This document shows, one piece after another, positions 3,032-49,260 of a stretch of 64,000 nucleotides of DNA. The stretch lies in NCBI GenBank assembly GCA_905178155.1, contig CAJINV010000005.1, positions 1,046,564 to 1,110,563 on the forward strand. The letters run 5' to 3'. The stretch is from Amoebophrya sp. A120. Its lineage: Eukaryota > Protista > Dinoflagellata. Position numbers and translations under genes: made by a program. Each line of letters starts with the position of its first letter. Within the stretch, counting starts at the first letter, position 1. Below the pieces are notes generated by a model. That model ran no database searches, had not been told where the DNA came from, and worked only from the letters and a program-made list of their open reading frames with translations.

Positions 3032-5713
3032 ATGAAAACCGACGCAAGGGCGCACAAGATGAGAGCAGTGAAGCGACGCTTCAGTAATAAAGCGGAGGGC
3101 TTCGTGGCGCTCTGCAGTACCAGAAACCTGGCCGTTGCCGTGCACGCGAATGGGAGTGACGTTGGTGTTTCCGGAGCACAACCTCCACTGGGCGTAGAGA
3201 TTGTTCTCCCGGAGCCAGCGAAGGATGCTACGGAGCAGCCAGTGCAAAATAGCACTCAGCCGGCGGCGGTTCTTTCGCGCCTGCAGGCAGCGAGGAATGT
3301 TACGGCTCCGCTGGCAGGGGGGAATGTGACGGAACATGGGCTAACGACGAATGTGACTGACCAGCGACATGAAGAAGAGGCTGGACATTTCGGTTTATCG
3401 GGCGGATTGTGGTTTCCGGATGTGTGGGCGGCGATGGCAAACGTCTTCCTGCCGTCTCGAGCCAGCGAGGCTTCGAGATCTCGTAGTGCTTCAGCCTCCC
3501 CGCGCAAGAAGTATTACCTTCGAGGGAGCGCACACAGGGAAGCAGCGAGCGGAAGAGTTGCGGGTCACGACCACGACGGCCGGACGACAGATCCATCCTT
3601 CCTTGCTATCACCGAGGATTCCGACAGGGTAGTGCATGTGCCGGCTCCTTTTACCAGCGGCCGTAACGCTTCCCGGGCCCCTTCGGCAGTTGAAATCGGA
3701 AGGCAAAGCCTCTTGCAGGAGAACACAATGTCTGCAAAGCGTCGGTCCCCTGACTATGCATTGCAAATATGTCTGGGTCTGGTACACTGGAACGTGGAAC
3801 TTGTCATGCTAATTCTGGATAGTGCAGAATCAGAAATCTGTGTTTTATGATCAGCAAAAGGGGTCCACTTTTGAGCAAATTGACCTCATGCGTCATGAAA
3901 AACCTGCGTGACAAGTCTTGTAACTTGCCAAACCCAGACATATTTGCGTTTGATGCTGACAATTTTGATTTGGCTGCAGAGTTTCTCGCCCACCTAGAGG
4001 CGAACACACAAACACATGCTGAGTTTGCTGCAAAGGCAATTAAAAATTATGTTGGCAAAAAGTATAAGGAAAAGCGAGCTGATTGGGAAAAGTGGAGACG
4101 GAAGGTTGACGTTCCAGCACACGTTGTCCAGTGGGAAAAACAGTACAAGCAGAGACTGAGAAAAAAGCTTGATGAAATGAAAAAAAAACATAAAACGGCT
4201 TACGATCGATTTTTCCGCGAGCCTACCGACCACTCAAAATGGATAGGGAAATACACCCACTTCGCGAGACGGACGAGTGGTTCCCAGGTAATCGGAACGC
4301 CCACAGATACACTGGAATTACTCGAGCAGCCGCAGCCGTACGACTCCAGCTTCTTCCCTTGGGGCAGCAAGAATGCTTACCGCTCCGATCCTACAGGCCG
4401 GACAATTTCGTATAAGCAGGAGCCCGACGCCGCGGGGAGTTTTGGAGCAGTTCACAAGAATTTTAAAAGCAAGGTCCTGCGCAAGCGCCAGACAGTCGAC
4501 CAGGGCAGCGGCGAAAAAGCAGAATCGGAAGTAGAAGAAGTTAAAAATTCGCGATTTGATGGCGACAAAGATCGGTTCGACCAGGTCATCAAAATTTCGA
4601 AGCCGGGCACTGATGCCATGGCGCTTGATGAAATTGTGATCAACCTGTTCCTGTCACACGGAGACGCCGGGGGTTTGGAGCCCTGTGTTGCGCAGGTGCC
4701 GCATGTCGTGTTCTTTTTTGACGAATCTGGATCTCATAGCGTCGGTCTTTTCGTCGAGAAGGTAGAGACCGACGTCACGAAGCTAATCCGCGACAGGGAA
4801 GTACACCCGAATGCATATTTGGCCAGCTTCCACTACTGTTTGGACCAACTGGATAAGGCGGGCGTTGTTTTGAATGATTTGAAGCCGGAGAACATGGGCT
4901 GGGGGATGAAAACCAAAAGCGTGAAGTTCTTTGACTTCGGTATATCGACAATTCTTCGCGATGACAAACGAGTCGCCCTCGGTCTCAATCCAACCCGGAC
5001 ATCTCTTTTCGGTTATTGGCAAAGCTTGAACAAGAGACAAAAAGCGGGAACGCCAGCGTATATGAGCCCAGCATTGATGCGAGGCTGGTTGCCTTTGGGA
5101 TATTTCTATGGCCCGAAGTCCGACTGGTTCGCCGCCGGTCTGACGATGTTGGTGCACCTTGGCATACCGGTACGGAAAGCGCCAGACGAGGTAATTCATA
5201 TATTGCACTGTAATCTTGTTTGATAATTTATACACACTGAAAACCATATTGTTCGAAGGAGAAAGGTCATGTTGGTCAGTAGAGAACAAACTGGACAACC
5301 AAGGAATTAATTTCTTGCTGAAGTGATATAGAAAATTCTATATCGCAATTTTCCAGTGGCGGAGAGGGAGAAGAATAATAAGAGTGGAGCGGCCGATTGC
5401 TCTTTGTGACCGGCCCTTCATTTGGGAGTGCCGAGAAGAAGTGTATCATTTCCCTTCGCAGACGCTCGTGTCAGGCTGGAAGAAAAGAGTGAAACGGTTT
5501 CTTGATGAACAATATCCTTTTGTAGAGGTCGCTTTTCGAAACGCGATCATCAACCACTTGAGCAGCGCGTGGCGGCCCACGGATGATAAGTCAGTGGAAA
5601 ATCTAAGAAACATGGGTAAAGTAGCCGCGAATCAAGAAGAATCGATGGAGGAGCCGCTAAGGCTGCGGCGATCCCTACCGACAATTCCCGAAAATGAGGC
5701 CGAAGACGTTTGA
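3032..5713 (+). CDS. Divergent Ser/Thr protein kinase with long N-terminal extension; predicted exons 3032-3754, 3961-5190, 5357-5713
   Basis: Kinase motifs GSFGAVHK, VIKISK, LNDLKPEN, VKFFDFG, AGTPAYMSP, KSDWFAAG. Removing element 3755-3955 plus one TSD (206 nt) joins ORF 3032 to ORF 3847 in frame. GT-AG intron 5191-5356 joins ORF 5384 in frame. Confidence 0.8.
3755..3955. mobile_element. Introner-like TIR element, family A; TSD CTGAC
   Basis: Left end tatgcattgcaaatatgtctgggtctgg; right end ccaaacccagacatatttgcgtttgatg. ctgac at 3750-3754 and 3956-3960. Removal gives SPD|NFDLAAEF. Confidence 0.85.
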
Positions 5714-6730
5714 GGTTTATCAAATTATATGTGCTGGCCCTGTTCTTTTATCGTTCCGTATCCGTTTCCGTTCTTTATTCGTTTTTTTGCCCTCTCTCAA
5801 TGGTTGTCGACACTTCGTTCGTTTTTTTTTTGAAATAAATGCTTTGCCAATAAATTTGACTCGGCTCATCTACGGCGTTGCTTGCTTGGTGAGCGCGGTG
5901 AATGTGTGATAAAGTACAACAACATAGAAGATGAGCAGATGACTGTCTGTTGCATGCTCGCCGAAGGCCAAGATGGTTGCAGCTCCAACTGTTTGCAGAA
6001 TCAACTTTAAATTCGTCCTCGACAGTGATGTCCGGGACATGTGCGGCAAACTATCTTTTGCCTGCCGTAGCTCATGTGTTCGATCCTGATTCAGTGAAGC
6101 AATTCAATTCCTCCTATTGGAAAACACTGGAGGTGCGGGAGTTGGTGCCTGTGAGATGGAGCAGATAACTGGATTTTAGCTCCCAGAGGGCCATGTGATA
6201 TTTTGTGCCGTCGAATGATAGCAATACGGGTAGACCAGTAGATGTTTGGAGGTCCGCAGGACGGACTGCTTCGCAGTATTCAAAATCTAGAACGGAAGCG
6301 AGGATACTGAATAGAAGTTTGCGTCTTGAATTATTGTTTTCTGCTGGGTCTTCTTTTTTGGTAATGCGCCGGAGTGAAGCTACAGCTACAGGGTTCATGT
6401 AATGGCCGCGAGTGAGTGCTTCTTTCTAACGTAATATTTCTTTGCCGGGTGTGGCTTCTCGTGATTTCGCAGTTTTTTAAAGGGGGAATGACGTACCTAG
6501 TTTTTTTGTCCTGCGAGGCTTAAGGTATTCTAATTCTTGAGAGTTGGTGTGAGGGCGGAGATGGGTAGTTTGATTTTTTGACTTTTATACCGTTGCGACG
6601 AGGACTCTTACGCCCTCAAAGGCGCTGTCCGCGTTGCTTGTCAGAATTGTAGGAAGCAGTTAGAGTCATGAGTCAGCCTCAGCCCATCGAGATGATAATT
6701 CACAAATAAAACACAACCTCCTGCGACAAG

Positions 6731-9700
6731 ATGGGCTCCGACGAGGAGGAGGACAAGAAAAAGAAGAAGAAGAAGGACAAAAAGGAAAAGTCCAACTCCT
6801 CCAGCGAGGACGCCAACAACAAGAGCAGCACGGACAACGAGGGCGCGGACGACAAGAAGAAGAAAAAAAAGAAGAAGTCCAAGGACAAGTCGGAGGACGC
6901 GGTTGCTATATGCTCGTGGACGATTCCCTTTTCTCATCCTCATTTCAATCGCATGCGCAGCGAACACAAGGAACGCCTTAAGTGTAGTATCCGCATGACA
7001 AATCCGCAGGGGCATGTTCGGGTGTTCCGGGCAGTGCATAGTGCACCCCTCGGACCCCGCACCCCCCCGGGCTTTAGTAGCGCAGTCTGTTAAGCATGAC
7101 AAATCCGCACACAATTTTTTTATTGTTTCTTGGGATTCATTCGAAATTCGTCATGCGCAGAGTGCTTAAACGCAAGACGTGAGTTTGGTACTTCGCATTA
7201 TACAAACAAGTTGGAGCTGCATGCCGGAGTTGTCCACTTGCATACGGCAAAGAGGGCGACCATAAAGCCGACGACGCGGAAGACGGGGCGGCGGCGGACG
7301 ACGCGACACCCGCGGCAGCAGGGGAGGATCAGGCGGGGGCAGCAGGGGAGAAGGAGGCAGCAGCGGATGCGGGAGAAGCGGAGAAGAACGAAGCAGCCGG
7401 GGAACTACAAGAAGGCGCCGCGAAAGAGGACGGTGGACCAGAGGAACCACCCGCTGACGGGGATGCTAAGGCGGAGGGAGCAGAAGATGGTAGTAAAGCA
7501 GGAGCAGATCAGGCTGGGGATGATGCCGCAGTGGCAGGAGCAGATTCCGCAGGGAAGAAAGAGGAAGGAGAAGCTGGGACCGCAGAAGCAAAGCCTGCAG
7601 ATGGTGGGGGAAACGATGCTGAGACCAACGACGACGACAAGCCGTGCGGGGAAAAGCCACCTGGATCGGACGACGAGAAAAAGAATGCAGAATCCAGCTC
7701 AGGAGCCGACGAGATGAAAAAAGACGACACAGAGGGACAAACCAATCCGGGCGACAAGGATGCTGAAGCGGCAAAAATAGAATCAGAAGCGCCGTTGAAC
7801 TCCACGAATGTAGTCGCTGAAGAGACGACGAAATCCGACGACGAGCCGATTCAGCGACGAGACAAATTCGGGAACGTTCTGCCCGACAATGTTAAGGAAG
7901 AAGACCTGGAAGAGAAGCCCTCCTTCAGCCCGCGGTCCCCGAAGCCGGTCGCTGTCGAGCGCGGGTCCCCGCGACCCATGTCACCCGGCCGCTACAGCCG
8001 CGACCCGGAAGCCGGTGGCGTTGGCTACCGGTCGAGGGTTGCCGCGATTACCGGCAAGGACCCGGATCTGGAAGACCCGATTCTCGGCGGGAGCACCACC
8101 CAAGACCCGGAGGTCGCGAAGTTCCTCGAGGGCGTCAGCGCCGAAATCAATTTCACCGACAAGACCGTGAACGTGGAGCCCAGCAGCGCCTTCATGGGCA
8201 GCGGCGGGGGGATAAACAGCAAGTCCAGCGGCGAGCCGCCGATGATGGACTTTTTGCGGAACAGCAACCCAGCACCAGCCGGGGCGCTCGTCCCTGGCTT
8301 TGTTCCAAACTATCTCGCTGCCGCCGGCGCGCAACCCGTGATCACGTCCGCGCGGTCAAACAAGTTCGCAGACGTCGAGGTCGCGATGCCGCACAATCTG
8401 GTTCCCGGACAGCGGTACGACCAGGTCGAGCCCCGGGTGTACGACCACGATTATTCGCCGCAGAAGCACGCTCCGGAGAAGGCGCACTGGTCCCAGCAAT
8501 TCGTGAACAACCTGCGAAAATCCGACGAGGACCTGCTGAAACCTATCGTATTTAAAAATGTCCCCACACCATAGTTGTAATGCAAATCTGCATGCTGAAA
8601 ATGTTTCTCATGCGGAGCCCTATGAGAAGCATTTTCCAGTCGTGTTTTGGAATTTGTCATGCTCCAAGCAGCATGATGTACTAGATCTGTGATGCTGCTG
8701 CGCTAGGTCAAACAGCACTACACTACGAGTCCAAATTTGTCATGCAAAACAGCCAAACCTTGTGGATTTGTCTAGCCGATTCCCCATCTTGACTTTGGGG
8801 TGGGGACGTTTTTACATAGGATAAAACCCCTTCCCACCGGCGTGGCGGGCGCAGCGGCTGCGTCCTCCAGTGCGATGCACCACGCGAAGTCGCCGACACA
8901 ACTTCTGCTCGCCCCGGGGGCCGCGAGCGGCGCCGAAGCCCCGACGAAGTACGTGCTGAACCCGGCGTTTTTGCCGCTGGGCGACATGATCGACAGTGTC
9001 ATCCGGCAGTTCAAAAACTGGCTGCGGTTGAACGACCAAAAGCTCACCCGCGCGGAGGAAAAAGTCGTCGAGTCGATCGTGAAAGGGTTGTCGATGAAGC
9101 TGACCCAGGTGGAGTTTGAACCAATCTCCGACAAGAAGGCCCAACTCAACCACGTGTCGGCGGTCATGGGTACGGTCGGCGGCGTCCCCGCCGGCATGGG
9201 CGTCGGCATCACGGCACCGACGGTCGCGGCGAACGGCAAGAAGTTGCTCCCGCCGCTGGGCACGAACAACGGGGAGATCGAGAAGCGGAAAGAGGAACTG
9301 TCGCAAAAAATCGCGTCCCGCGAAATCATCCAGTGCTTGCGAAAACCCATGAAAAGAATGGAACCGAAGATCTACGAGCGGATCCGAAGGGGGTTAACGG
9401 AAACCTTTTGCTACTTCGCAAGGTCTATCCTGTGCAAAATGAAGGATGTGGCAGTGGTAAGGAGTCGAAATTTGCAGTGCAACGGTCCTACCTGTATGAA
9501 TACTTATTCGGTCCTACCTGCTACAATTTTCAGTTTGGTTCGTCCTGAAATTGAAATTTTTGCTGCAAAAATTCTTACTAGTACGATGCTTTTTCTTCTG
9601 CACTGCATACCGTCAGACGTGAACTACGACCCGTATTCCCCGGCAAAGTGGATTTCCGCCCGGCAGTGGGTGATGTTTGTTCGCTGCTTCGAAGTCTCCG

Positions 9701-11765: not shown

Positions 11766-12706
11766 AGGATGGAAAGGAATTGATTTGAGCAATGATTTGA
11801 AAATGTGAGTAGAAATATTTTTAATGATGACTTTTCAACTTAAGCAGGTATCGTACTATCATTCAGGTCAATCAGACGCATGATGAACAGGATCGGTTTA
11901 TCACTTCAACTTGGAATAGAAATACAAGAACTTATGATCGTGGGTTTTAGATATTCTTCGCACAACACTGATTTGCAATCTTTACGCTGCTGTAGCTGTT
12001 GCCAAGAGAAGGGTTAATGCAAGAAAAATGCAGCTCGGAAACGGAAAAGTCGTTGAGCCAGGCGGTACTTCCCGCGGGGGAGCGTTGAGACAAAAAGTTG
12101 GCAAGCGGCAAATCGTAACAGTACCTTTTAGACCGTATTTCTAATTAGTGAGCACTCTCCTGGACTCTCTTTCCCTTTGTTTCTTCCATTTTTACCAGTT
12201 CGTATGGCAGTAGTACCGTCACAGAGTTTTACATCACCTTGTTTATAATACCATACTTGCGCATTGACGACGTTGTCACATTCCAAACCTGTACAGCTAA
12301 GAAAGTTCTCTGCAGTATTGTGAAACTTGATTCTGTTGCTTGTCCATCATCAAAAGGCTTAGCTGAGACGCAACCCTTAGGTTGTTGGCGGACACAAAGT
12401 GCACCTTTCGTTTGTGTTACTGTGCTGTCGAGCAGAGAGTGATTTTTACCCGCTTCTATTCTAGACGAACAAACACATGGAAGGGAAAGTGGAGAGACAA
12501 AATATGAGCGAAAATTCAGCTAAAAAGAAAAAGAAAAAAGCGCTTCAAGTCAAACCGGTTCATTTGCGTCAAACCGGGTTGTACAAGAAGACCCTTGATT
12601 TTCCTGCGTCTTTCGGTGCATAAGTCAATGGGTCTACTTACGCTTGCCGCCTTGTAAGTAGATTTCGTTTGTGAAGAAAATCTCATCTACTGTCTTGCAC
12701 AAAACT

Positions 12707-15330
12707 ATGGCCACAAAGAACGTGCAATTTGAGGTGACGGGGAGCAAGCCTCCCGCCCCGAAGCCGATGAAGAAGCAATTGTGGTCTCTGAATCCGGACC
12801 GCTACGACATCGATACGGTCATCGGGACGGGGTCCTATGGTAAGTGGAAGTTTATGGATCCTGGATGAAGATCGCAAGATAGAATTTCTATGCGAGACAT
12901 TCCTCTGTCGTACTACAGGACCGTGCACCAAGAACAGTGGATGGAAGTAAGCCACAGACCACTGCCAAGAGCATATTTTTTCCCACATCCACAACAGGTC
13001 AAGTGTACGGTGCACAGGACAAGTTTACGGGGAAGAAGGTCGCGATAAAGCGGTCGAAGGACGTGTTTGGTGAACTGACGGACTGCAAGCGAATGCTGAG
13101 GGAAATCGCCATACTGAACCGGATCGAGCACAAAAACGTCGTGCACCTGCACGAGCTGTATCTGCTGCCGAACCCTGCAAATTTCACAGAGATCGCCCTG
13201 GTCTTGGAGCAGTGTCAGTTTGATCTAAAGAAGCTGTACTTATTTTTTTGCTGCTATAATGATAATTCTGTTTCATGTATGCTTTTTTCGGTTCTTTCGC
13301 ATGCTGTGATTGTGCCATGTGCATGTCCACCTTCGGGAGCATCTTTCTTGATTAGAGAAACTGAAGCGTTACGAGCCTGTTTCACCAAAATGCACTGGAT
13401 TTTGAATCAGATTCAAATCGACGGAGCAGCTGAATGAAGCAGAATCAAGGACCTTGTTCTACCGGATTTGCTGCGGCGTCAACTACCTCCACTCACAGGG
13501 CGTCTGGCACCGCGACCTGAAACCAGCAAATGTATCATTGAACGATTTTTGCGTGACATATTCTGATTGCATCACACACTATCATTTTTATTTTCCGCTT
13601 GAAAAGGGTACTGTATCGTGCATAAAGATAAAACGCATGTCGAAAACCTACAGATCCTTCTCAACACGGACTGCACGGTGAAAGTGTGCTATCGCAAGAA
13701 AAAAACTGTCTTAGTCTCAACTTGTAATGCCGCGGACATTCTTTTTTCCTTGAGACCACAGGCTTTTGTCATAACATGCTCGACATGCAAGTGCAACCTA
13801 AGTCATCTTTCATTCGTGTTTTCTCTTGCTTCTGGCGCATCATTTCGTCCTGAGCGAATTTGTATTGCCGATTCTGCAAAGGTTTGAGACTGAGACAGTT
13901 TTTTCCTGGGATATGTGCGACTTCGGGCTGGCCCGCGCGGTTGGTCAGGACAACATGTCCCTGCAGATGCTGGAGCAGGGGGCTCAGGATGCACACGTGA
14001 AGCGCGACCTCACCGCCCACGTGGTCACCCGGTGGTACCGCGCGCCGGAGCTGATTCTGCTGCACGAAAACTACACGGAAGCGATTGACGTGTGGAGTCT
14101 CGGGTGCATCCTGTTCGAGGTGATGCTCATGGAAAAGAGATACTGCGAGAAGGCAGACATTCCGAAGAAGCGCGTGCCCCTGTTCCCGGGGGCCTGCTGC
14201 TACCCACTCAGTCCGCGGAAGGACAAGAACGACAATCCGATCGAGGTATAATGGAGATCAGGAGCGATTTTTGCAGTTGCTGCATTTAAACCGTTGTACA
14301 TTTATTTTTTGTTGTGCATAAAGTTAAAGTAGCATACGGAAAAATTCATCTCAGGTCGACCGCAAGCACGTGGACCAGCTGCGCGTGATTTTTGAGCACA
14401 CTGGGACGCCCAGCAAAGCCGACTACGAGTTTTTGAGCAATCCCGACGCTAAGCACTACTTGAAGAAGCACTTTCCCTCAGAGACGGCGAAGAAGCCGAT
14501 CTGGTTTTACCACCGCTTAAACGGCATTGAACCGAAGCTGCACGATCTGCTGTCCAGGTAGAAAGGATAGTAAGTTGTAATTGACGAATTATAGTTGTTA
14601 TACAAAGTTTGCCTACAGAAGTAGAATGAGGAACGAAACGAAATCTGGTGTAGCTGTTCATGCAGGAGTAGATCAAACACTTCTACTTCCAGAAAAACCC
14701 AATAACTCCGCCAGGTTGCTCGTGTTCAACCCGCAGAAACGCATGTCCCTGATGGATTGCATGCACCACGATTTTCTCGCGAAAACGGTCCGCGAAGAGG
14801 AGGCCCGAGGGAACTTTTTGCCGGGCCGGGGGCCGCACCGGGGGGAGGACGTCGATATGATGGACATGAACGGGAACTGCATCGTGGAAAGCATCAAGTT
14901 GCCGTTTCCGGACCACTATCAAATGCAAAAATGTCTGGGTCTGGAAGAATGAAAGATTTATCATGCTTGTCTGGCATGACTGTTAACTCTGTGATGCTTA
15001 GGCGTAAAAAGATCCTCTTGCGTGTCATGCAAAAATGGAGCCTGTCATGCGGAATACGCAACATACAGGAGCTCAAAAACTTGTCATGCTTGGTCACCTA
15101 TATCAGTGAGCTCATTACTGATACAGTCGCATCACAAGTTTCCAGACCCAGACATATTTGCATTTGATAACCACCTGGAGATGAATGAACCGGAGTTGCG
15201 CCAGTACTACGTGTACGGATTGGAAGTGAGACTAAATTTCGTGGAACGCACAGGAGGCAAGCATCGCAGTAAAGGATCCATATTTGCAGTGTTGGAACGC
15301 GGTGGATTTAACTTGTCATGCGAGCAGTGA
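12707..15330 (+). CDS. Atypical alveolate-type MAP kinase (T-A-H activation motif; Plasmodium MAP-2-like); 3' end uncertain
   Basis: Spliced protein IGTGSYG|[16 protein letters not shown]|[12 protein letters not shown]|[35 protein letters not shown] introns 12840-12997, 13236-13410, 13532-13653, 14246-14354, 14558-14714. TIR elements at 13690 and 14917. Confidence 0.9.
13690..13913. mobile_element. Introner-like TIR element, family C; TSD TGTGC; splits the kinase KVC|DFG
   Basis: Left tatcgcaagaaaaaaactgtcttagtctcaa; right ttgagactgagacagttttttcctgggata. tgtgc at 13685-13689 and 13914-13918. Confidence 0.95.
14917..15169. mobile_element. Introner-like TIR element, family A; TSD ACCAC
   Basis: Left tatcaaatgcaaaaatgtctgggtctggaa; right ttccagacccagacatatttgcatttgata. 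accac at 14912-14916 and 15170-15174. Removing 258 nt gives FPDH|[11 protein letters not shown]. Confidence 0.95.
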
Positions 15331-16492
15331 TTCAGAGCAGTTTAGTTACAGTAGGGGAGCTGCGTGCTCCTGCACTGGACCTGCAACAGGTTGTGCGTAC
15401 ACGATCTGTAGTTTATTTGCAAGTGATAACGGGCAGGAAGAGTCGATTAGCCGCGTGCGCGACCAGAATAACCGCCGCACCAGGAGCGTCAACATGCACC
15501 GGTGAGAAAGGTGGGTGAATCTTGTGTGCCAGGTGGGTTTCCGGAGAAGCATCCCTGCTATTTTTAGTTGTTGCGCGCCCACAATTTCGAAATTCTTTCA
15601 ATTTTTCAAAGAAAACCTTTAACCTAATCATGCACCGACTACGGATACATTGGAATTGGTCCAGAGATGACAAAAAGAAAGTTTTTCGATATGACATGCG
15701 CATATCACAAAGTCGAGAGATTACCTTTTACTAGCAAAGAGAGAGTACCTCTACCAGAGTCTACCATAACTGAAATTTTGGAAGAAAGATTACAAGCGAA
15801 GATTTTTCATGAAATGCCATGTAAAAAACAGGTTTTTGATTTACAAAATTATATTTCACCACATTGTCGTTTTGTCATGAAGTGTTTGTAGGATGGTTTC
15901 GCGTACTAGTAGCGGAAGGGCTACTTCAGATGCAAATGAATTTTGATGATTTAGTTTCAAGAAGGCGAGCACAGCACTTTTTCATGAACGAGCATGCCCT
16001 TGCAGAGGTATTAATTTACTTGGCACTAACTACAAAAATCGCAAACGGCGATGATGTGACCATGACACGCACAGGATTCCAAGCATGACCATACAACCCC
16101 TTTTGGCATCGAAAGTCAACATCAATTACCCTGCTATAATTGACGCTCATTTATTCGTCTTCAAGAGAATTTTTTGTGAACAGCAATCGGAACTAGCAAG
16201 AAAAAGTCTATTTGTTGCGACTTTTAGCTGTCGTCGTTTCAGCGTGTTTTTGTACCGCGGGGCGTGTTCATGCCTCCATCCCGAATACCCGGAGTCTTCA
16301 CCGACTGATGACTGGCTACTCAACGTAGCATCTAATGTCCGGTGGAGAAACTTCTGGCGTACTTAACAGCTTTCTCACAAATACGACGAGAGGCACGACT
16401 CTACTTCGGTTCTTCCAATAAAGGCGATTAGAATCCAAATCTCAGATCAACGTCTTCCTCGTGTAAATAAAAATCGAAAAGCAAAACCGAAG

Positions 16493-19171
16493 ATGACGTC
16501 CCCCGTGTCGTCCCCTACATCTTCCGGTCAGGGAAATGCCAGTAGCGGTGTGTTGGAAAAGAAAGCGCAAGGAGCTGCCTCGTCTTCCACGGACGTCGCT
16601 GCGGTATACTGTTCTTTAGACTTTTCTCACTTTGCTTGCCACGCTACCTAACATTCTATTCAATTTTCATATTGCATTGTCGATGTCTTGTTCAAGTGAA
16701 GGTGGTCGAATAAATCGTTTTCATCTCAAGTTTGGTCTTTCCATCGACATCGTTCCTTTCCAGGCGCCATCCGCTGCCGCAGCTCCGTCCGGGGGTTCAT
16801 CGAAGTCGGACAGCAAAGACTACTACGGGGCGTATGGTCAGGAGCAGGACTTTTACGACTACAACACGGGCGGAGATCATGATTACAACTACGACTATCA
16901 CGGACAAGCAGGAGCAGGGGCTGCTGGTCCGGCACACGACCAGCAGCACGACGAGGCCTACGACCCCAACTACGACTACAGCCAGGACTACAGCAACAGC
17001 AACGTGGCGTCTTCCACGTCCTACCACGACTACAACAATTACTACCCGCCGACCAGTGCTTCCGGGGAGCACAACTACTACGCGATCCCGATCGCAATGG
17101 AGCCCTACGCGATTTTGGAAGAAGCCTCGCAAAAAATCAGCTACAACACGGACTGGGCTGGGCGGGAAATCCGGAAGCAGATGGCGCAGTGCCGGGTTCG
17201 CCTGCAGGAACACGTGATCCACCGGAGGCGACAGGTGTCCGACGCGGACACGGACAGCGAGGACGATGAAAACGTATCGCAAGAAAAAAGTGTTACAGTT
17301 ACACATTGTGTTGCAGGCCACGCAAGACAGACAAGCTCTGTCATGCCGGATATGCATAGGAGCCTCGTTTCATAGGTGTTTTCCCGTAGGATTTCTGCAT
17401 TGCAAATTTTCTCTCTCATGCAAAGAAATTTGCGTTGCTGAATTCACTACAAATGTGTAACTGTAACACTTTTTTCGTGGGATAAAACGAGGCGTTTTAC
17501 GACTACCGCCAGCATTTGAACCAGCATTTGCAGGAGGCTTGGACGAAAAAGCAGCAGGAACAACTGGAAAAAGATTTGGTTCCCGTGTTTGAGTTCTTGG
17601 ATTCTTTCCACTTAGTGGGGCAGCAACTGGAGTTCATCGCGTCGCAAGTCTCGCAAACCTCCATGGCTCTCGCGGAAAACGTGACCAACTGGTGCGCGGC
17701 GGAGTACGGCTGGACCAAGCACGTGCAGACGTTGAACATGAAAAGCAGCGACTTGCGGCACAAACAGGCCATCGCCCAGGCGAACAACAATCGAGTCAAG
17801 TATAAATGAATGTAGTTTTTGTGCTTCCATGATGGTACACGTTCTTTGGATAAAAATGGCAGAATTTCGAAGTTGTAGAATAAGTTCTTCTCTGTAATTT
17901 TTACGAAGTAAAAATGCGTTGTAGTTCGTGCATGGCACAATAAAGCTGCCTATGAGACCACTTAAAACACCGACCTCCACGGCAATATCAGGCAGCAGAT
18001 GCTCCTTATCGGGGAGGAGCAGAAGCCGTCTTGGTTTTCGCGGAAGGGGAAGTCGCTTGAAAAGCTCGCTGAGGACCAGCATCGACACCAGCAGGCCATC
18101 GCGGATTTTGAGGAGCAGCAGGAGAGTCTGGAAACGGTGAAATCGAAGTTGATTCCGCAGGTCCATGAAGACCTGGAGAAGAAGCGGAAGGAGATTTTGC
18201 AGGCGGTGGACGACCTGTTTCTCAAAGCGAACTTCGTCGTCGGCTACAAGACGGACCCGAAGGAGTTCCGGAAAACCACGCTCGGGGAAGACAAAACCGC
18301 GGCCGGAGGAAGTGCCGGCACAGCAGGTTTTTCGGCGGATGAGTTGGGTCCGCCGCTGTCGTCCAAGCAGTCGCTCAGTGCTAGCGACGAAAAAGGTATG
18401 AACGTGAAGCAGGCGAGTAAAGTGACGCCGGTAGACAACGTGCGCATGGCGGATGAAGTGGCGGTTCCAGCTGAGCACCACGCGGAGAACGAAAATGATG
18501 TGTCTTCAAAGGAGCAAACCAGTAGAAAAGATGTGGATGGAAGTGCCAATAAGGGTGGAAAACCTCCTGGTTCTACCAGTATGTTGAAAGGCTTTGGAAA
18601 AGGAAAACCGGAGGCGCCCCCGAGTAGTTTTCATCCGAGCGCAGGAGCTGCGGATGCGGAAAGTGCGAAGCGCCCGGTGGCGTTTCCGAGCAGGACTGGT
18701 CCCGCTGCTGAGGCAGACAAACCCGCGGCTCCCCCGGTCGCAGCCGCGGCGAATGTGGAAACCCCAAAGCGGCCGGGCGCGCCACCACCGACGACCGAGA
18801 AAGAGATATCGAAAGAAGAAGGTGTAAGCGAAACCACGTCTGTCACACCCAGCGTAGCCGCGACCGTGAGCACCTCAACAGCGGCTACGTCCGCTGTGGT
18901 GTATGAACCCCCGGCACCGCCACCACCAGCACCAGCTGCTGTTGCGCAAGAGACGAAAAGTACTTCCGAAGAGGAGATTGTCGTCGCGGAACCGGAACGA
19001 GGCAGTGCTGCAGGGGGACAAGACCAATTGCCGGGCGCGGTGGTGACTGAAGCAACTACGGGAAAGAAGGCCTCGAAAGGGAAGAAGAAGAAAGGGAAAA
19101 ACGGAGGCTCAGCTGCGTCTTCCTCATCGTCGTCCAGGATTCTGGAGGCGGCAAACAATCCTTTGGCTTAG
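16493..19171 (+). CDS. Hypothetical protein (Tyr/Asp-rich N-terminal part, coiled-coil middle, Ala/Pro/Lys-rich tail); predicted exons 16493-16603, 16764-17274, 17490-17799, 17992-19171
   Basis: GT-AG introns 16604-16763 and 17800-17991, plus the element at 17275, join ORFs 16632, 17516 and 17999 in frame. Confidence 0.7.
17275..17484. mobile_element. Introner-like TIR element, family C-related; TSD AAACG
   Basis: Left tatcgcaagaaaaaagtgttacagttacacatt; right aatgtgtaactgtaacacttttttcgtgggata. aaacg at 17270-17274 and 17485-17489. Removing 215 nt gives DEN|EAFYDY. Confidence 0.93.
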
Positions 19172-30274: not shown

Positions 30275-33200
30275 ATGGAGTTGAATCTGGTGAAAGCGCA
30301 ACCCTTGCGGTCGGTGTACGTGCGGGCGGATGTGTATGGAAGCGTCAGGTTTGAAATCGACAAAGTTGAAATGATTTGTCATGCATACAATGGATACCAG
30401 TTGGAAGCCCAATTTCCAAGCGGCGCATGACAAATTTTCGGAGCTCTGGAATCCAATTTGTCATGCTGTTTGGGCACAGAAGACTGCTTTTGTCATGCTC
30501 CTCTAGCAGCTCTATCCCAAACCCTAAATAGGCTCACAATCTGCCTCATTTGCCATCCCGGCAAGACAGGCATTCCATGCCTTGCATTTTAGGCATGAGA
30601 AAGCATTTCAACTTTGACGATTTCAATCCTGACAGGTCCATAATGTGAATGCGTTCGAGGCGGTGATCGACCCCAGCATCCGCGAGGTGTACAGCGACAA
30701 CAAGTTTCACACCTCCACAAACGCGAAGATGGTGGAACAATACATTCTGCAGTCGGGGTATCCAAGAAAAAAACGTTGTTAGTGTAAATTTGTGATGCGC
30801 AACATGCAAAGTAATTGCGTCTGTCATGCTTGGCATGCATCGTAGGGTCCATTAAAGGGCGTTTTCACGTACTATCTGCGCATGACAGGTTTTTGCTGTC
30901 ATGCCAGACAAATTTGTAATGCTGTTCCTCCAAAGAAGTTACACCTACAATGTTTTTTTCTTGGATACGGGGGAGCAGAAGGGGTTCCAGACCCGGGACA
31001 AGGAAATCCTGTGGAACATGGAGATCAACACGTTTCAAGTGCGCCACGAGGTGGCCAAGGAGTGGTCCTTTTTCGTCAGCGTCATGGGCCTGTCGCACTC
31101 GCAGAAGGTGGCGGCCGACCACCTGCAGTTGGTCAACAGGTGGAGCGGCCGGAAAATCATAGTGATAATCGCCGACCACGGGTTCCGGGGTCATGGGTAC
31201 AGCAGAGTACCTGTTTTTTCATGCACTTTGACTTTCTCTCGCATAGGGTTAGGGATCCGATTGCATGGATCCGTGACTCCTTTTTCTCCAAATGGCGCGG
31301 TGTCATTTTTCCTGCCTCTTTTAACATTTTCGCTTCGTTTCCTAAAGACAAAAATTCACTTCACCGCAGCGCCCACGAGTTTTTCCAGATAGCGATTGCG
31401 TTGCATACGCAGCTGGGCGCCAACGTGCTGATGTTCGAATCTCCACCGGAATTCGAGCGGAATGTGCGGGACTACGTGGAGATTATGCCCTCCATCATCC
31501 TGAAGATCCTGGATTTCTACCGCATCCACAAATTTGCCGCGTTCGGCCTCGGGTACGGGGGCGCAGTGGCGTTTCGGCTGTACATGCTGGCCCCGGTTCG
31601 GTTTTCCTCCCAGGCACACGTGATGATCAACCCCAGGTTCCTATCTTGAGTAAAAACGTACCCACACCAGAGTCAGGATGGGGATTTTGCAACACAAAAC
31701 TAGGAGTTTTGTGAGTCACGCATGACAAGTTTCAGTCCGTAAGGTAGTGCAAGTTAGCAAGGAAAGCCGCATCACAAATCGACCTGCTGATCCTGTTTAC
31801 AGCATTACAAGTTCCCAAACACGATTGAAAATGCCTGTCATGGGGTTGCGCATCACAAATGTTCCTGTCATGGCAAATCTGCATGACAACTATGGTGTGG
31901 GGACGTTTTTACACAGGATAGTTCCCAGAGGGCGTGGAGCTCCCGGAGCGGTTCGACATCGTGAAAACGATGAAGCGGGTCGGGTTCGAACCCAGCCAGT
32001 TTTGGCTGATCCGGTTGCAGCGGAAACTCGATCAGGACGGGCTACCGATAAAATCCACCAGAATAACGCACGAAAAAAGAAAGATATCGGACAAGGTGAG
32101 AAAGAGCCGTAGTATCTATGGATAAGTAGCTACGGACTAGTCAACATACAGGTGAACGTGGACATCACTATGATTTGCATTAGTTTCCACCATGGCAGCT
32201 CGTTTGTCTTACACTTGCTTTTGATGATCTCTAGTACTGCTTTCAGCAGTGGAAAAATTCGAAGGACCACAAAAACGTCGTCAATTGATTCAAACAACAG
32301 ATTCTCGAAGACAGTTTCCAGAGCCTGCTTCAGCGCGTTATGCAGGAGATCAAGGGGTTGAAGAAGCGCTCCCCCGACGAGGTGAGGACGAAAAATGGAG
32401 CTTTTTTCGACGAGGTAATTTTTTCCCAGGACATCCACTACAAAAACATGCACTGGTTCCGGATGTTCCCCCACGACCCCCAGACGTTGTTGATCCTCTT
32501 TTCCCGAAAAATGACCAAGTGCCTGATCACCTACTTTGTCGCGCAACGGTTTCCCTTCCAGCACGAGGTGATCCCCATGCCGGGGTCGGAGCTCGCGGCG
32601 GTGCAGGACAAGAAGGCACAGGAGGCGGAGGAGGAGGAGGACAGCCCCGGACAAAAGAAGGGAAAGAAGAAGCGCAAAAACGCGAACGCATCCTTGCGAG
32701 AGATGGGGATCGGGGTCGGGGCGGCCGGCACGACCAGTGCGGGGTACTGTCGTGGCTTTTTTTTGGTGCCCTTAATGTCACTGTGAATCAGAATCTGGTG
32801 GATCATGATCTGCATGGCAAGTAGAATTCTTTCTGATGCTCACAATTTCAAACAGCTCACCGTCCGTCTCTTCCCCCGCAATGAGTCTTGTCAAGGGTCA
32901 GGATGGACAAAACATAACCGCCAGCAGCGGTTCGGGTTTTGAAAATAATCTGAAAAAGGAGATAAAAGCTGGTGAGGCCGCAACATCCAATGCCGCGGGG
33001 GACGCACAAGCGGCGGGTGAAAATAGCAAAGCCGCGGAAGGTAGTACCAGTTTAACAGAGGCGCAACAGCCAACCCAGCCAGCAGAGGGAGACCCAGCTG
33101 CATCCGCACCGGCCAAGGAAACCCTGCTCCCGCCCGTGGGGGAGTCACCAAAAGTTAAAGAAGCAACACCCGCGGGGGGCTTGGGTTTGATAGACGAGGG

Positions 33201-41865: not shown

Positions 41866-44800
41866 ATGTCAGCCGGCGCGTCGAATGTGTCTTCGCTGTC
41901 CCGCAAGCAAGCCCAGTTTATCCTGGGGTTCCCCGCGGAAGACGACGTCACGGAAAACAGCGTCCAGAAAGCCTTCAAACGTCTCGCGTTAGTCTTCCAC
42001 CCGGACAAGAGCAAGGATGAGAACAGCAAGTCCAAATTCCAGCAAATCGTCGCCGCGCGCGACCTGCTCGTCGACTGGTGCCGCAGCAGCAAATCCGTTC
42101 TGCACCGGGTGGTTTACGAAGCGACGACCGGGAGGGCGGAGAAGAAACAAGCCGAGCAGCAGAGGACCGCTAGTGCCGCGACCGGGGCGCCGCAGAGTGC
42201 GAGACACGCGTACAGTGGAAATCCGAACGGGACGAACCCCCGCGCCCCCTGGACCGCGTTTTCCGATATCCACCCGCCGAACGGGAGTGCTTCTTCGCAG
42301 ATGCCCGGAGGAGCCGCAGGTCCAGCGTCGCAGAGCAAGTTCTCCACAAGACCGAGCCACCACCCGGACCGGCCGCGACCGGGGTCCGCGGTGCCGGCGG
42401 GCGGGACGTGGTCGGGTAGAAAGGAATTTTTTCCGGAGGGGACGAGGTTTTCGGAGTATTCCACAACCGCATCTAGCACAACCAGGGGGACGACGACGTG
42501 GTCTGAAGCGCCAGGGGCATCGGCAGCATCGGCTTCCTCCGCTACTGGTCATTCATCCTCAAGGTCCGAAAACCTCACGAAGCACAAAGTCTATTGGGAG
42601 TGCTCGGCGTGCAAGGTGAACGAGATGGCGGGACTATCCTACCGGGTGAAGAAGCACTGCATCGAAATTAACCACGCTCACATCTGCGCCTGCGGGTACC
42701 CGTTTTCGTCGCACCGATTGACAACGGGGCAGGATTCGAAGCGGTATAGTTCTTCTGTTAGCTAAAAGTTTGTCATGTAAATGCAATGTGTTGATAGCAT
42801 AGAGTCAGAGTGAGTGATGTGTCTTTCTAGAATGAAAGCCAACCTCAAAAGCTATACACCAAACACCAACCAGAACCAAACGTTACACCTGTGCGGACAG
42901 TGGCTGCGAAAACTTCGAATACGTCTTACCGAATTCCACCGACCTAACTCCATGTCCGACCTGCGGTCACGCGCAGGCGTGCCACTCCACCGTGATCGAG
43001 ACCAAAGAGGTCACCGTCGAGGAGGCGGGTGGAGGCAAAGCAACGTACAGTGCGGCGGGGACTACAGCATCGTCAAAAAGGACCAGTACAGCCAATTCGT
43101 CATCCAATGCAGCGACGCAGAGAATGAAAACGGCCTCTACCGGCCCTGGAGCGCCGGGAGAACAAGATGTGAAGAGGCCGCAGTCCGCAGCAGCTTCTTT
43201 CCTTAAGGAGCACTACGGCACGGCGAAAAAAACGGTTGGCGCGCCGAGGACTGCGGCAGACAAAGTCGTGGATGACTTTGAAGATTTGTTCGCCGCGCCG
43301 GAGGACAGTACGCTTCGGTCTGCCCGCACGCGGCAAGACCCCGAGACGTCGGAACTGTTTCAGAGCTTTCTGAAGGAAACGCTAGGGGAGTGGACCGAGC
43401 CGAACCGCGCGGCCGGCCGGGACCCGACGACGGGCGGGAAGGCCGCGGTGCCGCGGGTATGGAGACCAAAAACGGCGGGCGCGAGGCTGTACAAGGACCA
43501 AACGCCAAGGACGGGGAACAATAAAGAGTCGAATTCGTACCTATTTTGGATTTGATTTTCGGCAGAAAATGAAAAACGCGATAGAAGAGAGCTAATCATT
43601 TTTCTTGCTGTTCCTCCTGTAACCGTAGTATAGTTAAAGGTACTGGTACGTGCTTCCCAAACAAAACTGCACAGCCCCGCTGACTTCCCGGGTTACAACC
43701 GCTGGAGCAACGCGGAGCGCCCGGTTTCTGCCGCGGGTCCCCGGCCGGACCACCGCCCGCTCTCGGCGGTACCCCGACCCGCCAGCGCGGGGAGGATGCG
43801 GCCGGCGAGTGCGCGCAGCACACGGCCGATGAGGGCAAGACCGATGCAGCAGCAGCCAGGCGCCTCTTCAAATGATGCCAAATCGTCTAGTGCAGCGCCG
43901 AAGATCCCCGAGGAATCACCCGAAAAGAGTTCCGCGGAGCCACCTACTCCGACCGGCGGAGGTGAAAATACGAGTAACCCGCCAGACCCGACCCCGGATC
44001 TGGATATCATCGAGGATGACGATGTCACGAGTAGTGACGCCAGTCCGAAAAAATCCTATTCCAACACGACGGTCACTAAGGATTTCAACTTTAGCAACCG
44101 AAAGCGGGAACGGACGCCGTCTGCGACAACCTCGACATCGCAGCAACTACCGCAGACCGGGTTGAACTCGCGGGCGACGCCGTGGCTGAAGGCAGCGGAG
44201 GCTTTGAAAATGGACATCCAGCGGGAGTTGAAAATGCGGCCGAAGGTCATGACGGTGGACCAGTTCAACGACTTCAAAGCGGCGCGGGAAGCGGAAGAAG
44301 GCGGTACGAGTACGACTAGTGCTGGTGGTGGTGCCCCCTCAGCCTCTAAGGAGCAGTCTATTCCGTCGGTGCAGTCGTCTCCCCAAAGACCACAAGTGCC
44401 CATGTCGGCAAGGCAGCATACTTCGCCGGTGCGGAAGAACGCGGGTGGCAGTGGTATGCGATCTTCAAGAGCGTATTCTACTACGGAGGACTACACATCC
44501 GCGGAGCAGATTTCGCCACCGCAGCGGCGACACAGTTTCAGTTCTCTGCGGCCGATGTCTGCGCCGGCCAGTCGCGGGGTTGCCGCGCAAAGACGAATGA
44601 GCGATGGAGAAGTTGTTCTTGAGACTGCAGCACAGGACAGCCAGCCTGCAGACGGGAAAGCAACCGGTCTAAGCCGTGGGGGTGCTACTCCGTTAGACCG
44701 TTACATTGACGGACTCGAGATCAAGGCCGGGGCTGCAAACAAACACTCTAGGAGCAGACTGCGCAAGTTCGCATCGAAGAGCGGTGGAGCAGAACAGAAG

Positions 44801-47800
44801 GACGTCGGTAGAGCGAAGGCAGTGCCGTCCGCAAGCAATACGAAGCTTCAAGGCAGGACTACGACTCCTAGCGGGCAAGAGCAAGAACCAGCAGCCGAGC
44901 CACTTGGAAAAAAGGGAAAAGAAGAAGCGCAACCCACCCGGAACAACTCTCCACTTCTTCGGAACATCGACAGTGACCAGGATGATCTGCTCGATTACAA
45001 CGACGAAAGTGACGGTGAAGTCGACTACATTTTTACCGAGGAAGCGGCAGCGCCGGTGCCCTCTGCCTCACCGTTGAGAAACGCCCGCGAGATGGCAGAA
45101 CAGCAGCAGATTGGCGGATTTGCTAGTACGAAGAGTTCGGGTAGTTTTGCTGCAAGTTGTACAACCGCTGGTCGAGGCGGAGCCTCCGTGAACAAAGTCG
45201 CAGCACGCCAGCCGGACGATTCGCCGATATCGATCTTGGAAGATGAACAAGGGGGAGATCAAGATCAGGATCCGTTTGCGGAGGAGAAAACCTCCGCTGT
45301 TCTCATGGCGGATATTGCGTCGTCCTTCAACGAGCTGAAGGAACATTTGTCGAAAAGTTCTGTTTCATCTTCTTCAAAACAGTCACAAGAACGGTCGAAG
45401 TCGAAGGAAAGCGTCACGTACTCGCAGAATGATTTTCACGCACCCGAGTCTAGCGTGGGCAATGCGTCGGTGGTGCGGGACAGTGAAGAACCACCGCAGG
45501 AGCCTCCTGAGTCTTCCGACACCGACTCAGATGCGGATGTGATTTCGAGACAGAGAGGAATGAAGAAATCCGGCTCACGACTCGAAATGAGTCCGCCACC
45601 TTTCCCGTTCGCGCATGACGAGCCGTTTGAAGTAGGGGGCGAGAAAATAAAGCCAGTGAGCTTGCTCCCTGGCAACACAAGCACTTTTCCCGCTACTTTC
45701 ACATCGCACACAGCATCCAGTGGCTCGATTCATCCCGCTGGTACGATACCTGCAACCGGAACGAACACGGTAGAGACAACAGCCAACCGCTACAAGCAGG
45801 CGGACACGCCGCTTTTCGGCCGGAGCGTGCAGGAGCCAGACTCTGTCGAATTGAACAGTGTCGACTCTGATTCAGACGGGGAGGACGTCGAGCAGGAGCT
45901 TTTGCGAGCAGGAGAAGATGATGGTCGTGAAAACAGTGAAGATGAAGATGTAAAAGTACACGCAGATGAGCCGGACCCAGTTTTGTACTCGGAGGCGACG
46001 CTGATTGCGGGTCTAGAAGAAGAGTTGAAATCCGAAACCAGCATCACGGACCAGAAACACCACCAAAACGCGAATTTTCCCAGCACAAATTTACTTCACC
46101 GTGGGGCTTTCACCACCGGTGGGAGTACGAGCAGCAGTAGTGGTAGTAGTACAACTGCTGCTGCTGCTGTTGCTGGTGCTACCACCTCTTCCCAAACGCA
46201 GACCGCGCGGTCAGCCGCCGCGAAAGCGAGACCGCGACGACCCGCAAGTGCGGCGAGGAGAAACAGTACGCCGCGAGCGACAGGAAGTAGTGGCGCAACC
46301 AGGGACCACCGCCGACGATCAGGAAGACCGAATGCGAGTCCGACTGCAGGAGGAGCTGCTGCGCGTGGTACAACTAGGACAGGTGCAGGGACGAGCTCTG
46401 CTTCCAGTACAGTAGCGAGCAGTGGTACAAGTACTGCGACGACATCAAGGAACCACCCTGGTCGCAGTAGGGCCGCGCGGCCCGTCAGCTCGCGCGGGAC
46501 TAGATCTTCGACAGGAGAACAAGGAGGTTCGTCCTCCTCCACAGGAAAAGCCGGGACTCCGCGCGGGGCGTCCGGTGCTTCGAGCGCGAAGTTGAAGTTT
46601 CACTCGGACCAGCGAGTGGAACAACGGAAGGAATACAACACGGAAGCTGATGCGAAACGCGCGCAGCAAACGCCACGGGAGCAGGCCGGGCAGTGGGCCG
46701 CGCCGAAGGACGGGCCGACGGTGCACTGTGGGGGTTTGGGTCCGTGGGAGAACGGGCTCCGGAGCAGCAGCTCGCCGGTGCCAGCAGCGAAAGCGAAAGT
46801 TGAGGAGCCGAAGACCGAGGATGTAGCTGTTGATGGAAATGACGTTGATAATGGTATCGCGAAGAAGACCGCGAGTAAGGAACCTGCGGATCATGCACCA
46901 CAAGCAGGTGAAAGCGTAAAACCTCCTTTAACCCTGCCGCTCCCGAAAGAAGACAAGGGTCCCCCCAGTGGCCACGTTTTCGTGATGGACGATTCTCCTC
47001 CAGTTTACAGCGAAACTGCAAGCTACAAGACCGTAAAATCCGCAACCACAACAGCACCCCCAGCCCCTCCGCCGCGACCGACTTCCGCGATGAGCGGCAG
47101 CATGACGGCGAGACAGATAAATCCGCCAAGAGCCAAACCCTTTTACCACCTTTTCGGTGTTGGGAGCAACACCGCGCGACCGCAATCCGCGAGGCCTGGC
47201 GGATCTTCCACCAACGACGACGATGACGGCGACTTTATCACCGTGCCTTGGTGGCAACGGATGCACGGTAAGCAGACGCAGCAGCGCGCCGCGGCGCAGG
47301 CGGCGAATGCGGAAAAGATCAAGATCATGAAGGCATGGCAGAAGGAGAAGAAGCAGTTACTCGCGGAGACGGAAACGGCGTTGGTTTTTACCGATCCGTT
47401 CGCGCAGACGGTGTTCCGGGTGCGGAACAGTTTCAATCAGCAGGAAGCAGGCGTGATTGATGAAAGCTCGGAACCGGCGTCGTCGCCCGGGAAGCAGATG
47501 CCTGTGGTAGCAGATTCTGAGCGGAAGGAGGGCATGGAAAAGCAAAACACGCAAAGGATTCCACTTCAACAGCACCAAAGCCAACCAGGTGCACCGCGAC
47601 CGGGATCTGCGGCGGGATTTCACAGTTACAGCAGCAATTGGAACACAACCGCGACCTCTACCTCGCGTCCGAGTTCCGCGGCGGGCGTCCGAAGAGAGGC
47701 ACGTCCGTTTAACGAGGAGCTCAGTACCTCTCCCTCTGCGAAGCAGTGCAAGTTTGTGCCGCAGTCTGCGGCGAGACGCTTTGACGCCCCTCCATTTGGG

Positions 47801-49260
47801 CAGGAAACCAGGCCGCGCGAGCGACCAGGGTCCGCCGGAAGCAATATGCGAGCGAAATTGCGATACACCCACCGGCAAATCCGGGATGAGCTGATGCAGC
47901 AGTACGAAAAGGAGAAGGAGGAGAAGGAAAGACAGAACCATGCGAAAGCCGCTGCGGGCAGCAATGTAGTAGAACAGGCACATCAAACGCCCGGAAATCC
48001 GTACGCGCCGATTTCCGGGGCGAGGGCGAATGCGAACCTGAATCCGAACCCCTCTACAACCGGTAGCAGTACCCCACACGCGACTCGACCACGGCCGCAG
48101 TCCGCCTTCGGAAACCGAAACTTCATCCGGGAGAACCGGGAGATCGGGACAATTTTGAAGAACGCGAGACGGCGAATTCAGGGGGAAATGGAAGACGAAG
48201 AAAACGTCGAGTCGCACTTTTTCGTCAACGATGAGCTGCAGAGACGCTGGTTTGGAACTGGATCCGGTGGAGCGGGAGGAGTAGATCAAGACTACGATCA
48301 TGTCGTTGGAGCTGCTGCTGCTGCAGCAGGACCTTCTGCCGCAACCGTGAAAGCACAGCACGTGGCTTCAAAGCCGAGCTTCGTAGCACCACCGGCGACC
48401 ACATCCCGGCCGCAGGGGAACAAGAATGTGAAAGTTCAGTTAACAACAGAGCAGATCCACGCCGATTTTGAGGCGCAGTTTGCGAAGTCCACGTTTGTCG
48501 AGGGAGAACACTCGCTATCGCCTATCCTGAGTAAAAACGTACCCGCACCAGAGTTGTAATGTAGATTTGCAAAGACAGGAAGACTTGTAATGCGCATCAC
48601 CATGAGAGCCATTTTCAATCGTGTTTTGGAATTTGTGATGCTGTGAACAGGATGAGCCGATGAATCTGTGATGCGGCTGCACTTGCTAACCTGCACTACA
48701 CTGCAGAGTGCAACTTGTCATGCGTGACTCACAAAACTCCTAGGTTTGTGCTGCAAAATCCCCATCCTGACTCTGGTGTGGGTACGTTTTTACTCAGGAT
48801 ATCGCCGGAAAAGGAAAGCCGAGCTGTACGCAATCATGGAGCGGATTTTGGAAGGGAGCTGATCGAGATGACTTCGGTCGACGACAAGGAGGAATTTTCA
48901 CCTCAGGACAAATCGGTTGTGGAACAGGAAGATAGGGCTTGGGCGGCTATCAAATGTAAAAACGTCTGGGTCTGGAAGAATGCAACTTGTGATGCTGCAT
49001 TTGGATTCCAAAAAAATCTGTATTACATGAGTACCAAAGGGAATGCAATTTTTGCTACGCTGAGAAGGCATCTGTCATGCGGAATAGGCATCCAGAAGCG
49101 TTCAAAAAATCTGTATTACTAGGGTATGCATCGCAGAGACAGACATCATGGCTCATGCAAAACGTGCATGACAAACCTCGCATTCATCCAGACCCAGACA
49201 TTTTTACATTTGATAGCGGCCGGACTGCTGCAAAAGTTTTATCGGGAACAGCACCAGTAA
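41866..49260 (+). CDS. J-domain (DnaJ) protein with Cys/His cluster (FAM221-like) and a very long low-complexity RPxSA-rich tail
   Basis: J-domain ILGF..VQKAFKRLALVFHPDK..FQQIVAARDLL. Cys/His cluster WECSAC..HICACGY..SH..CADSGCENFEY..CPTCGHAQACH. GT-AG introns 42744-42873 and 43537-43674. Elements 48523 and 48948. Stop TAA 49258-49260. Confidence 0.8.
48523..48801. mobile_element. Introner-like TIR element, family B; TSD TCGCC
   Basis: Left tatcctgagtaaaaacgtacccgcaccagagt; right actctggtgtgggtacgtttttactcaggata. tcgcc at 48518-48522 and 48802-48806. Removal gives HSLSP|EKESR. Confidence 0.95.
48948..49215. mobile_element. Introner-like TIR element, family A; TSD GCGGC
   Basis: Left tatcaaatgtaaaaacgtctgggtctgga; right tccagacccagacatttttacatttgata. 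gcggc at 48943-48947 and 49216-49220. Removal gives RAWAA|GLLQKFYREQHQ*. Confidence 0.94.

Follow-up and report, generated by a model that had tools for sequence, protein, structure and literature searches.

Within a 64,000-nucleotide stretch of contig CAJINV010000005.1 of the dinoflagellate Amoebophrya sp. A120 (the window), we identified 16 introners, short transposon-like elements bounded by terminal inverted repeats (TIRs) and named here by their first position in the window. The reading that we favor, and consider reasonably probable, is that these elements lie within exons, flanked by 5-bp target-site duplications (TSDs), and are lost from RNA together with one of the two duplicates, through a putative relaxed spliceosome and at positions set by the element ends. 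Assembled RNA contigs, the decayed TSDs of three older copies, and reading-frame continuity in a closely related assembly provide the evidence.

A first-pass annotation, made from the sequence alone, had listed 13 elements of 152 to 308 bp with perfect 5-bp TSDs. All 13 begin where it had placed them, and each carries an exact 5-bp direct repeat. A blind scan for paired TIRs and TSDs recovered 12 of them (17 to 22 of 22 positions matched), whereas 13690, whose TIR contains a 1-nt offset, escaped; the same scan of inverted ends gave three weak GC-rich pairs (15 to 16 of 22), which is the level of shuffled sequence (4, 1, and 1 matches in the shuffles), and no pairs with 6- to 9-bp repeats in the window. 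The count of 13 nevertheless falls short, as three older copies with mismatched TSDs, recognized by reading the sequence, had been overlooked (6909, 9426, and 15214). All elements are given in + strand coordinates, and all host genes lie on that strand. Ends of the TAT...ATA type, described as TIRs of about 28 to 40 bp, hold for 24 of the 26 ends, which start with TAT; the exceptions are the right end of 3755 (ATG) and the left end of 23254 (TAG), and the ungapped TIRs measure 28 to 58 bp, or 15 bp for 13690. A run of A follows the variable nucleotides at every end except the two of 30335. The proposed grouping into at least five families with largely unrelated interiors needs an amendment, because the interiors are not wholly unrelated: the 16 elements, 3,948 bp in total, contain the motif TGT(C/A/G)ATG 51 times, versus 18 times in the other 60 kb, and the families therefore have more in common than their first bases. 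In none of the 13 elements with perfect TSDs does any register yield GT-AG, GC-AG, or AT-AC boundaries, and removal of the element plus one TSD leaves an open frame across all 13 junctions (across 34114 only when 34410 is removed too), with removed lengths that span all three phases, in agreement with the annotation on both points.

RNA evidence over these genes comes from assembled contigs derived from complementary DNA (cDNA), in four runs (X1 to X4) that represent two samples of one study and allow comparison from element 3755 to element 23254. We took these contigs as spliced RNA because they skip ten GT-AG introns. The annotation had predicted RNA junctions that lack the element and keep one TSD, and such junctions are exact for four of the 13 elements, each with 5 ambiguous letters. 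The family A-like element at 3755 to 3955 (TSD CTGAC), in a gene with a kinase domain, is skipped in run X1 only (206 nt; joint from 3749 to 3956), and the family B element at 8544 to 8823 (TSD AAACC) in run X4 (285 nt; 8538 to 8824). The other two are skipped in all four runs: the element with family C-like ends at 13690 to 13913 (TSD TGTGC; 229 nt; 13684 to 13914), which interrupts the motif KVCDFG of a mitogen-activated protein (MAP) kinase, and the family A element at 14917 to 15169 (TSD ACCAC; 258 nt; 14911 to 15170). Their host gene (12707 to 15505; Pfam Pkinase) contains three elements and five GT-AG introns, and its spliced model agrees with the coordinates of the RNA contig. A fifth case follows from contig arithmetic, in that removal of 215 nt at the family C element 17275 to 17484 (TSD AAACG) agrees with the X1 contig coordinates to the base. 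The X1 contig piece ahead of 23254 stops at 23247, just before the TSD.

The three older copies are skipped as well. The element at 6909 to 7244, whose TSD copies (TGCTA and CGGCA) match at two of five positions, is absent from one X4 contig of depth 9.7 (341 nt; joint from 6907 to 7249; 1 ambiguous letter). The element at 9426 to 9609, with family D-like ends and TSD copies AGGTC and CCGTC, is skipped in X4 and X1 (189 nt; 9422 to 9612; 3 ambiguous letters). That at 15214 to 15428, with decayed family A-like ends and TSD copies ACGTG and ACGGG, is skipped in all four runs (220 nt; 15212 to 15433; 1 ambiguous letter) and has the form of a GT..GG intron. Several of the joints bear the label "between: not known" in the records, whose coordinates leave zero room for extra letters (for the 6909 contig, 230 + 58 = 288 nt). 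The raw RNA run X9 covers only element ends, with no exons, and is uninformative on these genes.

A perfect TSD leaves six equivalent registers for the cut, and mismatched TSDs break the tie, which makes the older copies informative. In all three, the RNA retains the left TSD copy: positions 1 to 4 at 6909, positions 1 to 4 at 15214, and positions 1 and 2 at 9426. At 6909 and 15214, this places the 5′ cut at the first base of the element or one base before it and the 3′ cut 4 to 5 nt past the terminal ATA. Hairpin folding of two of these copies is weak (z of −0.5 for 9426 and −1.4 for 15214, versus −3.1 to −12.3 in the 13 young copies; 12 shuffles each); both are still skipped, so that a strong hairpin is not needed. 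From these three older copies, the cut position is likely fixed and defined by the element. A donor of the form N|TAT is plausible and would resemble the GTA donors of ordinary introns in the window; the RNA-supported GT-AG introns start with GTA in nine of ten cases and with GTAT in four of ten. In Table S4 of the study by Farhat et al. (2021, PMC7789003), nine of nine predominant noncanonical motifs of A120 begin with NT, and nine of nine motifs of strain A25, whose repeat begins with TTA, begin with TT; these motifs read N-T-A at the 5′ end in both strains. Judged by title and abstract opening, no Amoebophrya intron paper that we found fixes the cut position, although subscription papers and figures beyond this search may do so; by their legends, Fig. 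3 and Fig. S19 to S25 of PMC7789003 may already show part of the register.

To extend the sample, we drew on a closely related assembly. A pattern search of metagenome records yielded at least 166 loci (600 kb) in record set JACKZZ01, which were picked by the family A end, so that family counts in them are biased. For at least 10 of the 16 window elements, this set contains matches that are full-length or long, at up to 95% identity. One JACKZZ01 protein is 97% identical (541/560) to an A120 protein and 42% identical to its A25 counterpart, and on this ground we dropped the notion that JACKZZ01 represents a distant species whose elements are shared through transfer. The window has no ortholog among the 166 loci, and looking for longer homologues of one protein gave no match.

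When no TSD was required, these loci gave 544 TIR pairs, 379 of them up to 450 bp long. Among the 379 short pairs, exact TSDs measured 5 bp in 256 cases, 4 bp in 1, and 3 bp in 7, with a four-of-five match in 45 more; not one of the 544 pairs showed an exact 6-bp TSD. The frame test drew on 186 perfect copies whose loci had a clear orientation; in 112 of them, the frames could be called separately on both sides. One 5-nt spacer is required for the frame in 102 of these 112, as it is in 20 of 25 imperfect copies. Divided by orientation relative to the transcript, the one-spacer frame holds in 26 of 28 and 34 of 38 copies, and both orientations therefore work. Across 154 oriented TSDs, no position shows a preference for G or AG beyond the coding background. 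The direction of TSD mismatches in genomic copies, with too few cases and no clear trend, did not fix the register. Together, the RNA joints, the constant TSD and frame continuity in this second assembly, and the match to the elements of Farhat et al. (PMC7789003) uphold the view of the first-pass annotation that these are nonautonomous TIR transposons removed as noncanonical introns.

The mechanism that we propose has two parts. For insertion, an integrase-like DDE transposase would act in trans on the TA..TA ends, with the TGTVATG motifs as putative binding sites for it. Removal would use a donor N|TAT, composed of the last TSD base and the first bases of the element, together with an acceptor of free sequence that would lie 4 nt beyond the terminal ATA; the machinery is likely the parasite's own spliceosome in a putative relaxed form. 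Because both ends read TAT inward, the same signals would be present in either orientation.

Several points weigh against this mechanism. An acceptor without AG sits poorly with standard second-step splicing chemistry. The informative copies number three, with contigs from one study and the 6909 joint from a single contig, and all three match at TSD position 5, which makes a cut at N|TAT indistinguishable from one at |TAT. The share of G at that position is 0.33 of the 154 TSDs, which is no preference, and the C/G bias that we had noted there in the window (11 of 13) was rejected when it was not repeated in JACKZZ01. In families A, B, and D, conservation of TIR positions 1 to 11 does not differ between the 5′ and 3′ ends, so that no donor-specific selection is visible, and the NT pattern of Table S4 may be the aligner's pick among equivalent registers. 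As regards insertion, a Pfam search of the 135 stop-to-stop frames of at least 130 amino acids revealed no transposase family in the window, as the annotation had stated, and on inspection no frame evidently coding for a transposase appeared in the five long copies of the 600 kb (457 to 1,104 bp). A transposase was not found in A120 by Farhat et al., who excluded mobilization by this route (PMC7789003). Finally, IS3EU/GingerRoot elements make a 6-bp TSD against the 5 bp found here.

The rival that survives best, although we regard it as unlikely, keeps the same cut geometry and replaces the spliceosome with a dedicated endonuclease/ligase pair, or with a protein domesticated from a transposase, that recognizes the paired TAT/ATA ends; a mechanism of this kind is suspected for euglenid nonconventional introns. 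Such a machine would fit elements that have no dinucleotide requirement at either end, work in both orientations, and are symmetrically conserved at their two ends. The paired ends into which the 13 young copies fold would also suit it, but the old copies at 9426 and 15214 are removed exactly despite their weak hairpins, and the cut is asymmetric about the stem (0 to 1 nt before it and 4 to 5 nt after it). What is reported of the spliceosome cuts both ways: U1 small nuclear RNA was not detected in A120, which favors a separate pathway, while most spliceosome proteins are present and the machinery is otherwise nearly complete (PMC7789003); another Amoebophrya strain has U1 and ordinary introns (PMC12005148). 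The 5′ N-T-A, which resembles ordinary donors in both strains, also argues for splicing.

Much further down in probability lies removal from DNA, in which expressing cells would cut out the elements as ciliates do with internal eliminated sequences (IESs) and RNA would mirror an edited genome. Loss of an element with one TSD is the exact reversal of insertion, and excision of transposon-derived IESs has precedent in alveolates; cut-and-paste excision, however, usually leaves both TSDs, exact skipping occurs at decayed ends and mismatched TSDs too, and the DNA-like run X5 extends into or through elements with no precise skips among the joints listed. Least probable of all is that reverse transcriptase created the joints by switching templates across a hairpin flanked by direct repeats, a setting known for such false introns and a concern when the RNA evidence is entirely cDNA-derived contigs from one study, because 6909 is skipped with two of five TSD matches and a 1-letter overlap, 15214 also with a 1-letter overlap, and weak hairpins too, because in four of four runs the main contig of the MAP-kinase gene, whose conserved KVCDFG motif is whole only after removal, has the skipped form, and because the genomic frame continuity in 102 of 112 copies is independent of cDNA.

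Removal by a relaxed spliceosome thus remains the reading that we prefer, and the question of the mobilizing enzyme can be taken separately. A constant TSD length across families is what is expected from one type of DDE enzyme. An integrase-like (IS3EU/GingerRoot-like) enzyme would be the candidate suggested by TA..TA ends combined with a 5-bp TSD, and the literature already contains a hint of it. TA..TA ends mark IS3EU/GingerRoot, and the IS2 subgroup of IS3 makes a 5-bp TSD (PMC10045372, PMC6839031). The window elements work like miniature inverted-repeat transposable elements (MITEs) of IS3EU/GingerRoot, yet their TSD length sets them outside that group. As the annotation had held, no mobilizing enzyme is established, although there is a lead in print: family 38 of A120, with a 5-bp TSD, TA/TA termini, and integrase-like fragments (Gozashti et al. 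2025, PMC12130899). The same source lists most A120 families as TIR elements of no assigned class, whose automated TSD calls range from 2 to 6 bp, and one was set at 5 bp by manual inspection. Our TIR patterns had no matches in viral contigs; in prokaryote genomes there was one lone match without a TAT end, which we rejected as chance.

The phenomenon itself is already published, and the window brings no new kind of element; it refines the picture modestly, through the fixed register, the constant TSD, and the independence of orientation, and so opens the mechanism to testing. Copies with diverged TSDs expose the true cut position and so offer a handle on how these introns are cut, and the three available agree. 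Applied genome-wide to existing RNA sequencing data, the same test would swap "variable splice sites" for one rule and show where lariats should lie. We tentatively raise a broader possibility, which we hold with less confidence than the reading above: all of the "highly variable" noncanonical introns of A120, tens of thousands of them, may belong to one superfamily with 5-bp TSDs and TA..TA ends and may obey one end-measuring rule of excision (0 to 1 nt before, 4 to 5 nt after) that ignores the acceptor sequence and works in either orientation, executed by a U1-less spliceosome without AG proofreading or by a new endonuclease/ligase pathway that would reverse the insertions of transposons in RNA. 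If this is true, the organism neutralizes any exonic insertion of one transposon superfamily, at any sequence and in either orientation, and would serve well for studying how introns are gained and how splice sites can be recognized when U1 or AG is missing.

The other elements lie downstream of those covered by RNA joints. The element at 23254 to 23550 (TSD CCTAT) has family A ends and an internal insert ending in (ATG)n. It is followed by elements at 30335 to 30642 (family F, TSD ATGTG), 30759 to 30967 (family C, TSD CGGGG), 31642 to 31920 (family B, TSD GTTCC, inverted relative to 8544 and 48523), 34114 to 34366 (family A, TSD AAACG), 34410 to 34561 (family D, TSD CGCAA), 48523 to 48801 (family B, TSD TCGCC), and 48948 to 49215 (family A, TSD GCGGC). 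The distribution looks clustered, with seven elements within 30335 to 34561 and 48523 to 49215, and three very long exons of 3.7 to 7.2 kb (43634 to 48522, 49978 to 57141, and 57830 to 61570) hold none. Inserts ending in (ATG)n or (ATC)n are a feature of longer copies (window 23438 to 23460, L033:1276-1293, and L037:6535-6552); they are possibly 3′ stubs of a retroelement of the non-long-terminal-repeat type, for which introners would be safe landing sites.

Further observations concern the JACKZZ01 loci and the RNA contigs. Region L019:1-12000 is very dense in elements, with at least 14 copies in 12 kb and apparent nested insertions near 1857 to 2640. Insertions are spread unevenly over the codon phases: in 74 of 154 cases (47 of 102 in a stricter set), codon position 1 coincides with TSD position 5, and no clear sequence preference lies behind this. 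A single family A copy that lies at another place in the genome and matches window positions 3797 to 3817 and 14917 to 14948 is retained in an abundant X1/X4 contig and in 83 raw reads of X9; some copies are thus transcribed and not removed. Single RNA contigs over window positions 12622 to 19669 run from the MAP-kinase gene through intergenic sequence into the next co-oriented gene (5,053 nt in X1 and 10,926 nt in X2), which would represent read-through or overlapping transcripts and not necessarily a single molecule.

Compared with known systems, the window elements stand apart from major (U2) introns, whose GT or GC donor and AG acceptor are absent from all 13 elements with perfect TSDs; the 154 TSDs have no excess of AG. 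Euglenid nonconventional introns and the MITE-derived introns of Fritillaria borealis likewise bear TIRs and TSDs and have non-GT-AG ends, but the pyrimidine|purine junction consensus and CAG/CTG pairing of the former and the preferred AG-AC or AG-AT ends of the latter are patterns that the window elements lack, as these introns are summarized in a 2024 review (PMC11282704). Class 12 introner-like elements of Polarella glacialis (bioRxiv 10.1101/2020.10.14.339549) also have a 5-nt TSD and use, by their description, one register of the same geometry as proposed here, with the donor formed by the last TSD base and the first element base and the acceptor by TSD positions 3 and 4. They require a TSD of the form NNAGG or NAGGH, with a real G donor and AG acceptor, and one orientation, whereas the Amoebophrya elements require neither.

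Among transposons, the window elements have the features of MITEs: TIRs, a TSD of fixed length, short size, and no coding capacity. Ginger1 and Ginger2 differ in their TGT termini and 4-bp TSD (5 bp in TDD-4/5), as described in PMC2836005, the window ends being TAT. IS3EU/GingerRoot elements share the TA..TA termini, the TIRs, and a fixed-length TSD without strong sequence preference; beyond their 6-bp TSD, they differ in the GingerRoot TIRs of 100 to 150 bp and an encoded transposase, and they are not reported as introns in these accounts (PMC10045372, PMC6839031). Family 38 of A120 (PMC12130899) is by description an intron-making TIR DNA element with the same 5-bp TSD and TA/TA termini, about 810 bp long with fragments of an integrase-like open reading frame, whereas the window copies span 152 to 336 bp and carry none.

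Closest are the published A120 introners, whose signature the window ends match, so that the annotation was right to suspect a known phenomenon. Farhat et al. (PMC7789003) describe ends of TAT, seven variable bases, and at least three A, with direct repeats of 3 to 5 nt, in 29,850 copies and 1,954 families. The two sets have in common the inverted TAT-~7 nt-AAA ends, direct repeats at the borders, noncanonical junctions, many families, and a length of about 240 nt; TAT ends, border repeats, removal without GT-AG, and repetition in families are all found in the window. In that paper the repeats vary from 3 to 5 nt and the splice positions are variable and unresolved, and the 2024 review likewise gives variable TSDs of 3 to 5 nt and leaves the mechanism open (PMC11282704). 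The elements described here are known A120 introners, nothing different in kind, with repeats of a constant 5 bp and one indicated cut geometry.

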